Notes under the pieces: model-generated | Seen by the model: the letters and a program-made list of their open reading frames with translations, nothing else | The model's database searches: none | Told to the model about the DNA's origin: nothing | Program-made: the position numbers and the translations under genes | Shown here: positions 50,736 through 52,065 of the stretch, piece by piece | How the letters are laid out: each line of letters begins with the position of its first letter | Numbering within the stretch: position 1 is the stretch's first letter | Source of the DNA: Escherichia coli | GTDB taxonomy: Bacteria > Pseudomonadota > Gammaproteobacteria > Enterobacterales > Enterobacteriaceae | Assembly (NCBI RefSeq): GCF_022846255.1 | Contig: NZ_AP025682.1 | DNA length: 64,000 bases | Direction: 5' to 3' (one strand)

Positions 50736-51116
50736 TTATGCCGCACGTTCATCCCGCACCGCTAACACCTCGGGCAAATTCAACTCAATCCAGTCCGCCA
50801 GTGCAGCAACCTTTTCGCTCACCTGCTCGCCCAGCGGCGTGAGGCTATATTCCACATGCGGCGGCACCACCGGATACGCGATACGGTTAAGAAAACCATC
50901 CTGCTCTAGCGCCTGTAACGACTGCGCAAGCATCTTTTCACTCACCCCGCCGATTTTGCGCCGCAGGTCGCTAAAGCGATGAGTACCTTCGCGTAGCGCC
51001 ACCAGAATCAACACCCCCCAACGGCTGGTGACGTGTTTCAAAACCTCGCGCGACGGACACTGTTCAGCGAAGAGATTTCCCTCTTTGAGTTGTTGCGACA
51101 GGCTAACCTGACTCAT
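50736..51116 (-). CDS. ytfH: HxlR-family transcriptional regulator YtfH
   Basis: 126 aa from ATG at 51116 (MSQVSLSQQLKEG...); track ORF starts 37 codons upstream. Confidence 0.85.
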   Translation of the reverse strand: MSQVSLSQQLKEGNLFAEQCPSREVLKHVTSRWGVLILVALREGTHRFSDLRRKIGGVSEKMLAQSLQALEQDGFLNRIAYPVVPPHVEYSLTPLGEQVSEKVAALADWIELNLPEVLAVRDERAA

Positions 51117-51139
51117 TTCATACTTACCTTTTTGTATGT

Positions 51140-51156
51140 ACTTACTAAAAGTAAGT
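51140..51156. promoter_or_regulatory. Palindromic candidate operator between divergent ytfH and qorB
   Basis: ACTTACT-aaa-AGTAAGT (7-bp perfect arms); additional tacttac copy at 51121. Confidence 0.4.
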
Positions 51157-51204
51157 TTAAGTGTTAGCGTATTTAAACACAAGACAAAACGATGGAGACT
51201 TCCC

Positions 51205-52065
51205 ATGATCGCTATTACTGGTGCCACTGGCCAACTTGGTCACTATGTTATTGAATCCTTGATGAAAACGGTTCCTGCCAGCCAAATAGTGGCTATCGTT
51301 CGTAATCCGGCAAAAGCACAGGTACTGACAGCACAAGGCATTACCGTGCGTCAGGCTGATTACGGCGATGAAGCCGCACTGACATCTGCGCTTCAGGGAG
51401 TGGAAAAACTACTGCTGATCTCTTCCAGCGAAGTGGGTCAACGTGCCCCGCAGCATCGTAATGTTATTAATGCCGCAAAGGCGGCCGACGTGAAATTTAT
51501 CGCTTATACCAGCCTGCTACATGCCGATTCCTCCCCGCTCGGCCTCGCCGATGAGCACATTGAGACGGAGAAAATGCTGGCTGATTCTGGCATCGTTTAC
51601 ACTCTGCTGCGCAACGGCTGGTACACCGAAAACTACCTCGCCAGCGCCCCGGCAGCACTGGAACACGGCGTATTTATCGGTGCCGCGGGCGATGGCAAAA
51701 TTGCCTCAGCAACGCGGGCTGATTATGCGGTAGCTGCGGCGCGCGTAATTAGCGAAGCCGGTCATGAAGGCAAGGTTTACGAACTGGCGGGCGATAGTGC
51801 CTGGACACTGACACAGTTAGCGGCAGAACTCACCAAACAGAGCGGCAAACCGATTACCTATCAAAACCTGAGCGAAGCCGATTTCGCTGCGGCACTGAAA
51901 AGCGTCGGACTGCCTGATGGACTGGCGGATATGCTGGCGGATTCTGACGTTGGCGCATCGAAAGGCGGTCTGTTTGATGACAGCAAAACGCTTAGCAAAT
52001 TGATTGGCCGCCCAACGACAACGTTAGCCGAAAGCGTAAGCCATCTTTTTAATGTTAATAACTAG
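51205..52065 (+). CDS. qorB: NAD(P)H:quinone oxidoreductase QorB (YtfG), NmrA-like
   Basis: 286 aa from ATG at 51205 (MIAITGATGQLG Rossmann motif). Confidence 0.9.
   Translation: MIAITGATGQLGHYVIESLMKTVPASQIVAIVRNPAKAQVLTAQGITVRQADYGDEAALTSALQGVEKLLLISSSEVGQRAPQHRNVINAAKAADVKFIAYTSLLHADSSPLGLADEHIETEKMLADSGIVYTLLRNGWYTENYLASAPAALEHGVFIGAAGDGKIASATRADYAVAAARVISEAGHEGKVYELAGDSAWTLTQLAAELTKQSGKPITYQNLSEADFAAALKSVGLPDGLADMLADSDVGASKGGLFDDSKTLSKLIGRPTTTLAESVSHLFNVNN

Follow-up and report, generated by a model that had tools for sequence, protein, structure and literature searches.

We analysed a 64,000-nucleotide stretch of the Escherichia coli contig NZ_AP025682.1 (assembly GCF_022846255.1; hereafter the window, numbered from its first base), in which an inverted repeat lies between the divergent genes ytfH, encoding an HxlR-type regulator, and qorB, encoding a quinone oxidoreductase. 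The palindrome makes up the right half of a conserved block that extends beyond it, and its perfect symmetry is not the feature that has been conserved. We consider it likely that the palindrome is the promoter-proximal box (box B) of a composite YtfH operator of ~37 bp, through which YtfH would repress both divergent promoters and from which it would be released by way of its cysteine residue Cys20. The original prediction, made from the window sequence, had proposed the palindrome as an operator at which YtfH controls qorB and/or its own gene. An operator for qorB, and probably for ytfH too, is indeed supported, as conservation, co-occurrence with ytfH-type genes, geometry, overlap with predicted promoters and a CRISPR interference (CRISPRi) screen all fit it; what had been missed was the larger, two-box extent of the operator and the fact that the perfect symmetry is not what is conserved.

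The sequence features from which that proposal started were largely borne out. Direct reading and a repeat search both found a perfect 7-3-7 inverted repeat (ACTTACT at 51140–51146, the loop aaa at 51147–51149 and AGTAAGT at 51150–51156), and the 88-bp length given for the spacer shared by the two genes (51117–51204) agreed with how RefSeq annotates an E. coli genome of 99.9% identity (AH21I008), from which the RefSeq names of ytfH and qorB were also taken. Pfam and RefSeq concurred with the family assignments: YtfH matched HxlR (PF01638) with an E-value of 2.6e-32 (110.9 bits against a cut-off of 20.8), and QorB matched NmrA (PF05368; E 6e-22) and NAD_binding_10. An extra TACTTAC copy had also been described as 20 bp away; the copy exists, at 51121–51127, but its distance from the one at 51139–51145 is 18 bp, start to start. 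The exact palindrome pattern occurred once in the 64 kb, against 0.05 occurrences expected even with two mismatches allowed. Perfect 7-bp-arm inverted repeats of any sequence, with loops of 0–6 nt, numbered 47 in the window, or ~0.065 per 88 bp. The palindrome by itself is suggestive and of only mild significance, and we count it as non-random because of its conservation across species, not for its symmetry alone. The sole near-match elsewhere in the window, ACTTAATGCGACTAAGT at 5327–5343, carries two mismatches. We rejected it as a further site; it lies inside an open reading frame (ORF) of 395 residues (4685–5872, minus strand) and is most likely a chance occurrence.

Conservation was assessed at 80 orthologous ytfH loci from one-per-species genomes, ranging from Escherichia to Proteus and Morganella, which gave 79 distinct spacers for alignment (counts out of 79 refer to these). 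In 78 of the 80 loci qorB was the divergent neighbour of ytfH, and the spacer measured 84–105 bp. A block of 37 bp, ending at the right edge of the palindrome, had a mean information content of 1.87 out of a maximum of 2 bits with 25 of its 37 columns invariant, compared with a mean of 1.11 bits and 6 invariant columns out of 48 in the rest of the spacer. Its mean conservation even exceeded that of the second codon positions of qorB among the same orthologues (1.73 bits; 63 of 119 columns invariant); third positions averaged 0.77 bits, none of 119 columns being invariant. The block is built of four hexamers that alternate in orientation (Table 1), with the consensus sequences ACTWAC (h1), GTAYGT (h2), ACTTAC (h3) and GTWAGT (h4). 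The gap between h1 and h2 reads CTTTTT in 76/79 spacers and that between h3 and h4 reads TAAAA in 74/79. We term the pair h3 and h4, i.e. the palindrome as first noted, box B, and the imperfect inverted repeat formed by h1 and h2 box A. Box A holds the extra TACTTAC copy, overlaps the ribosome-binding region of ytfH and would constitute a second binding site.

Only 21/79 orthologues, from the group of Escherichia, Citrobacter, Salmonella and Proteus, have the perfect 7-3-7 form, and most genera carry ACTTACT-aaa-AGTTAGT. Variation within box B was confined to one side, at the central position 51153 and the outermost position 51156, h4 being the least constrained of the four hexamers; more generally, half-site variation was restricted to the centre or the outer base. 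By BLAST, 5,406 of 5,426 complete E. coli genomes carried one copy of the block, and a scan of the 80 loci (421 kb) found the box exactly once per locus, always in the spacer. No second chromosomal copy of a 64-bp segment containing the block was found in E. coli by BLAST, a search that a diverged 17-bp site would escape. A dispersed repeat of the repetitive extragenic palindrome or miniature inverted-repeat transposable element type was excluded, with one copy in the window, one place per genome and one box per locus.

The block was linked exclusively to ytfH-type genes. More distant homologues were drawn from a representative library, a direct homologue search having returned near-identical proteins only. 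Those with 69, 65, 61 and 56% protein identity keep the pattern ACTWACC-TT…GT-nn-GTACTTAC-N5-GTnAG, the last of them coming from a TARA ocean metagenome. A divergent NmrA gene was called beside the 65% (L085) and 56% (L087/L088) homologues; the contigs L084 and L086 are short and no NmrA neighbour was called there. At 52% identity or below, the neighbours differed (Rrf2, zinc alcohol dehydrogenase, YceI and others) and the block was absent or fragmentary. The α3–α4 motif HRFS.LRRK(I/V)GGVSE(K/R)ML was common to the box-bearing homologues only, the box-less ones differing at this place.

A paralogous divergent pair of ytfH-like and qorB-like genes (60 and 61% identity) was found on pJ53-KPC_Vir (NZ_CP157326.2, 169045–173082), a 360-kb Klebsiella-type KPC/virulence plasmid in E. 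coli J53, adjoining genes for a TetR-family protein and a nitroreductase. Its spacer keeps h1 to h3 (ACTAAC-CTTTTT-GTAAGT-ACTTAC), including a good 6-6-6 repeat as box A (ACTAAC-N6-GTAAGT), and has lost h4. Two genomes lacking qorB keep ytfH together with the box: the whole block is retained in Enterobacteriaceae RIT714 (L054), and Lelliottia nimipressuralis (L043) has a perfect ACTAACT-ttt-AGTTAGT with a degraded h1. These two loci hint at a role of box B in autoregulation, with box A perhaps being important mainly where qorB is present. A strong extended −10 element (TGGCATAAT) faces ytfH in the Lelliottia genome (region ~2380–2500 of L043/L054). The co-occurrence of the block with ytfH-type genes is as would be predicted for a regulator that has its binding site nearby, and speaks against an unrelated factor.

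Surveys class YtfH as an uncharacterised E. coli transcription factor. In a pooled single-cell screen by CRISPRi and CRISPR activation, posted in December 2025, ytfH knockdown raised qorB expression by a log2 fold-change of 4.6 (24-fold), and no gene other than qorB was differentially expressed (bioRxiv 10.64898/2025.12.20.695731). This result supports the view that YtfH represses qorB and that its regulon is strictly local.

Promoters were called with a simple sigma-70 scoring script on the 79 spacers, combined with column conservation. On the qorB side, the TG at 51162–51163, the TA at 51165–51166 and the T at 51170 were invariant in 79/79, with the bases between them varying. As the invariant bases of TGnTAnnnT are exactly those that define an extended −10 element, we read them as a qorB-ward extended −10; the plasmid paralogue also has a TAnnnT hexamer at the place equivalent to the qorB −10. 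Judged from the sequence, transcription of qorB may start near a conserved AAC at 51176–51178, which would put the palindrome at approximately −37 to −21. On the ytfH side, the best −10 overlapped h4 in 61/79 spacers. The E. coli-type hexamer is that given in Table 1; in most genera the best −10 was TAACTT at 51154..51149 (43/79), and an alternative at 51171..51166 scored best in 8/79. The ytfH start is predicted near 51147 (K-12 ~4434082, plus strand) or else near 51159 (K-12 ~4434070); the predicted qorB start corresponds to K-12 4434051–4434053 on the minus strand.

The spacer is known to bind RNA polymerase in genomic SELEX (systematic evolution of ligands by exponential enrichment), both as the RpoD holoenzyme (PMC3946193) and as the RpoS holoenzyme, the latter with one of the strongest peaks, of intensity 90.2 where most listed peaks have 4–20 (Shimada et al. 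2017, PMC5493296), which suggests that the stationary-phase sigma factor may drive one of the two spacer promoters. The hexamers printed for the qorB/ytfH spacer in Shimada 2014 (TCGACA-15-TACATT, PMC3946193) were not present in the qorB–ytfH region of K-12, even with two mismatches. A shift in that row of the table, or in the extraction of its text, may be the reason, and these hexamers were left unused.

Taken together, we propose that h1 to h4 form two tandem pseudo-palindromic boxes, each of a size for one YtfH dimer to insert its pair of recognition helices into adjacent major grooves. Box B would cover the −35 and the −35 to −10 spacer of the extended −10 qorB promoter and, on the opposite strand, the −10/+1 region of the divergent ytfH promoter, and box A would cover the early transcribed region of ytfH, beside its Shine–Dalgarno sequence. 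As the operator overlaps both predicted promoters, YtfH bound there would block RNA polymerase at both, so that qorB would be strongly repressed and YtfH would limit its own synthesis. Quinones, other thiol-reactive electrophiles or oxidants might then modify Cys20, releasing YtfH and inducing QorB, by analogy with YodB, QsrR, HxlR and QorR.

Cys20 is the only cysteine residue of YtfH and corresponds to the N-terminal sensory cysteine of the family, the ‘CP’ motif of helix α1. It aligns with the sensory Cys11 of HxlR and with the ‘CP’ of 2FSW and 7KD3. The Cys20–Pro21 pair was invariant in 80/80 orthologues, in 79 of which Cys20 was also the sole cysteine, and the position was occupied by cysteine in 108 of 126 distant representatives. 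The closest solved structures were 1YYV (Salmonella YtfH), HxlR, HypR, YodB and YdzF, the first being that of a close orthologue (phmmer E 3e-70 over residues 5–122). By analogy with its relatives, an electrophile or quinone signal received via Cys20 is plausible; a literature search on qorB/ytfG, which returned mostly noise, gave no inducer data.

The proposed arrangement was then compared with known HxlR/DUF24 systems; for QorR, QsrR and YodB the comparison draws on reviews. The size and half-site spacing of box B fall within the range of the family (15–20 bp, with centres ~9–11 bp apart), and the norm in the MarR family is likewise a pseudo-palindrome of 16–20 bp contacted in adjacent major grooves (PMC6798810). 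Among the systems most like the one proposed is QorR–qor2 (qorA) of Corynebacterium glutamicum, described by Ehira et al. (2009, J Biol Chem 284:16736), in which a DUF24/HxlR thiol-based redox-sensing repressor controls a quinone oxidoreductase gene, as we propose for YtfH (PMC3351151). Some automatic annotations even label enterobacterial YtfH ‘Redox-sensing transcriptional regulator QorR’. However, QorR is an actinobacterial protein, and the likeness drawn here is one of family and target. The qorR and qor2 genes are reportedly divergent; QorR is also reported to repress itself and to depend on a single N-terminal Cys17, and qor2 to encode a YtfG-type enzyme.

YodB of Bacillus subtilis (5HS7, a Protein Data Bank relative with E 9e-10) and QsrR of Staphylococcus aureus, both quinone-sensing DUF24 repressors, belong to the same Pfam family as YtfH. 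Their N-terminal sensory cysteine residues (Cys6 and Cys5 respectively) are alkylated by quinones, and the proteins bind as dimers to palindromes of ~15 bp across two consecutive major grooves, with regulons made up of quinone and nitro-reductases (PMC8063818, PMC6798810). YtfH differs in having one cysteine, where YodB has Cys6 together with Cys101/108 for disulfides, and in having apparently a single local target and an operator that looks like two tandem boxes. The YodB box, TACT-N7-AGTA (PMC8063818), has a match in the window at 51139–51153. We rejected it as the relevant motif; its AGTA is AGTT in 56/79 spacers and AGTG in one, and its axis at 51146 is 2 bp off the conserved dyad axis at 51148.

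After YtfH itself, the nearest relatives with solved structures include the B. subtilis proteins HxlR (7BZD/7BZE) and HypR (4A5M/N), whose sensory residues, Cys11 and Cys14, align with Cys20. HypR recognises a 7-2-7 inverted repeat (PMC3351151), near the 7-3-7 of box B. Both proteins, however, activate from upstream of the promoter (HypR from −53 to −95), whereas the proposed YtfH box lies across the predicted core promoters and the knockdown indicates repression. Two residues after the cysteine, YtfH has Ser22 where HxlR has lysine, so a formaldehyde crosslink of the HxlR type (Cys-CH2-Lys) is not expected.

Several observations weigh against a composite YtfH operator of this kind. A stricter built-in promoter scan of the spacer returned no promoter, and the supplements of Kim 2012, Ettwiller 2016 and Conway 2014 yielded no usable start sites for it; thus the promoter positions stand on a heuristic score and on conservation. 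The call for ytfH is the least certain part and is ambiguous, with three candidate −10 positions. The screen is a preprint, the effect of ytfH knockdown was seen in ~4% of cells only, and its authors note no prior YtfH binding data and define no site (bioRxiv 10.64898/2025.12.20.695731). In principle, the CRISPRi effect could come from interference between the two divergent promoters, which overlap, and not from the loss of YtfH. Within the block, h4 is the weakest hexamer, with erosion seen both in the most distant orthologue and in the plasmid paralogue, and box A (6-6-6) differs in spacing from box B (6-5-6), its half-site centres being slightly wide apart, so that two dimers are not the sole way to read it. 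The ytfH ribosome-binding site and the promoter elements account for part of the conservation. Finally, with HxlR and HypR being activators, repression is not a rule of the family.

The block is conserved beyond the usual need of an operator, being nearly unchanged between E. coli and the marine bacterium whose regulator is 56% identical. It might do more than bind a repressor dimer, for example as a fixed nucleoprotein assembly of two dimers that couples the overlapping promoters into a bistable switch, or as an element through which YtfH or another factor acts on the ytfH leader RNA to control translation. We think such an added role unlikely; its bistable-switch form would fit the de-repression of only ~4% of knockdown cells.

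It is also conceivable, although quite improbable in our judgement, that the block is conserved only as the packed core elements of two overlapping promoters plus the ytfH ribosome-binding site, the palindrome being a by-product. The block does overlap the predicted qorB −35, the predicted ytfH −10 and the ytfH Shine–Dalgarno sequence, SELEX shows strong binding of the spacer by RNA polymerase alone, and perfect repeats with 7-bp arms are not very rare (0.065 per 88 bp). However, promoter hexamers and Shine–Dalgarno sequences normally drift between genera, whereas 25 of 37 columns are invariant here, h3 being identical in all 79 orthologues and also in the homologues of 56–69% identity. The −35 hexamer TTACTA is a poor match (3/6), which selection for a strong promoter would not keep constant, and the conserved positions are arranged as a dyad (AC..AC / GT..G). 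The 24-fold de-repression of qorB upon ytfH knockdown, moreover, is taken to require a YtfH-dependent cis element.

Another factor, such as a global or stress regulator, could instead occupy the block, with YtfH acting indirectly or elsewhere in the spacer. The proposed binding of YtfH to the block is deduced, and the spacer contains other partly conserved stretches (51176–51180 and 51188–51197) that would suit such an account. We regard it as rather unlikely all the same: the block follows ytfH-type genes over a wide taxonomic distance and onto a plasmid, stays when qorB is lost and vanishes when the regulator diverges, and its single copy per genome is unlike the motif of a global regulator. 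We know of no E. coli regulator motif that resembles ACTTAC-N5-GTWAGT.

It is highly improbable that the palindrome, or the complementarity of h1 with h4, acts as a hairpin in the 5′ untranslated region of the ytfH RNA or as a DNA cruciform (by Shine–Dalgarno sequestration, termination or attenuation), for although ACUUACUUUU and AAAAAGGUAAGU can pair in minus-strand RNA and so cover the Shine–Dalgarno sequence, and the block is probably partly inside the ytfH leader, the spacer folds no better than shuffled sequences on either strand (z −0.1 and −0.6), the stem is A+U-rich with only −4.9 to −5.4 kcal/mol and no U-tract, Rfam gave no match, and the 79 spacers show no covariation, each variable pair changing on one side only and breaking the pairing (T:T at 51143–51153 in 56/79, A:C at 51140–51156 in 16/79, and 51128–51150 never pairing). 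An intrinsic terminator or regulatory RNA hairpin was ruled out on the same grounds of weak energy, missing U-tract, lack of an Rfam match and lack of compensatory changes.

Table 1. Genes, proposed operator elements and predicted expression signals around the ytfH–qorB spacer (window coordinates; variant counts are among 79 spacers)
Feature	Position	Strand	Sequence	Remarks
ytfH coding sequence	50736..51116	-		126 residues; HxlR/DUF24-type winged-helix regulator; ATG at 51116
YtfH Cys20 codon	51057-51059	-		sole YtfH cysteine, in ‘QCPSRE’ motif
Conserved block (proposed composite YtfH operator)	51120..51156		h1-CTTTTT-h2-h3-TAAAA-h4	delimited by conservation
Box A (h1 + h2)	51122..51139		ACTTAC-CTTTTT-GTATGT	imperfect inverted repeat; 18 bp, 6-6-6; half-site centres 12 bp apart
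h1	51122-51127		ACTTAC	ACTTAC 72, ACTAAC 7
Probable ytfH Shine–Dalgarno	51127..51130	-	AAGG	read from sequence; abuts and overlaps h1
h2	51134-51139		GTATGT	GTACGT 50, GTGCGT 22, GTATGT 6
Box B (h3 + h4)	51140..51156			7-3-7 palindrome; 17 bp; half-site centres 11 bp apart
h3	51140-51145		ACTTAC	invariant, 79/79
Predicted qorB −35	51142..51147	+	TTACTA	inside box B; with the −10, top sigma-70 pair in 61/79
h4	51151-51156		GTAAGT	GTTAGT 41, GTAAGT 21, GTTAGC 15
Predicted ytfH −10	51154..51159	-	TAAACT	over right arm of box B; best −10 in 18/79 (E. coli type)
Predicted qorB extended −10	51162..51170	+	TGtTAGCGT	−10 hexamer 51165-51170; 17-bp spacer to −35
Predicted ytfH −35	51182..51177	-	TTGTGT	paired with the TAAACT −10
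qorB Shine–Dalgarno	51194..51197	+	GGAG	7 nt before ATG; columns 86-96% conserved
qorB (formerly ytfG or qor2) coding sequence	51205..52065	+		NmrA-like NAD(P)H:quinone oxidoreductase; ATG at 51205; presumed regulated target

The genes around the palindrome are arranged in the order cpdB (+), ytfH (−), qorB (+), ytfF (+) and ytfE (+). In K-12 the spacer corresponds to 4434025–4434112, the palindrome to 4434073–4434089 and the h1 to h4 operator to 4434073–4434107. Two spacer bases differ between the window and K-12, neither of them in the palindrome arms: position 51137 is T in the window and C in K-12 and most E. coli, giving h2 its minority form GTATGT (6/79 orthologues), and position 51159, just right of the palindrome, is A in the window and G in K-12 and most E. 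coli. The window version of these two bases is common to ~200 of 5,400 E. coli genomes.

Upstream of the ytfH start codon, AAAGGTAAGT was found in all orthologues and distant homologues. The start codon itself varies by genus. Many genera (L019, L028, L033 and others) use an ATG at 51121..51119, which abuts the block and h1; in E. coli this ATG runs into AAA TGA, and the annotated start lies 5 nt downstream, at 51116. Accordingly, conservation is poor over the beginning of the ytfH reading frame, the initial 4–5 residues being unconserved. The mechanically generated ORF list of the window contains a 163-residue frame with a GTG start (50736–51227, minus strand) that crosses the whole spacer into qorB, and public N-terminally extended YtfH entries of 154–212 residues (P0002–P0010) look like mis-called starts that swallow the operator/promoter region.

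The regulation of qorB by YtfH is most likely of an ordinary, known style, now pinned to specific bases. The link between ytfH and qorB was already known from the screen; what is added here is a base-level candidate operator (h1 to h4), the promoter elements that it would occlude and a single candidate sensory cysteine. General concepts are unchanged by this finding, and a specialist would not be surprised by it. If the proposal is correct, one y-gene regulator of E. coli would be closed out, and its compact, apparently single-target repressor/operator pair could be used as an electrophile biosensor. Thiol-based quinone sensing by DUF24 proteins, so far a Gram-positive theme, would thereby extend to the Enterobacterales and to a plasmid-borne paralogue.

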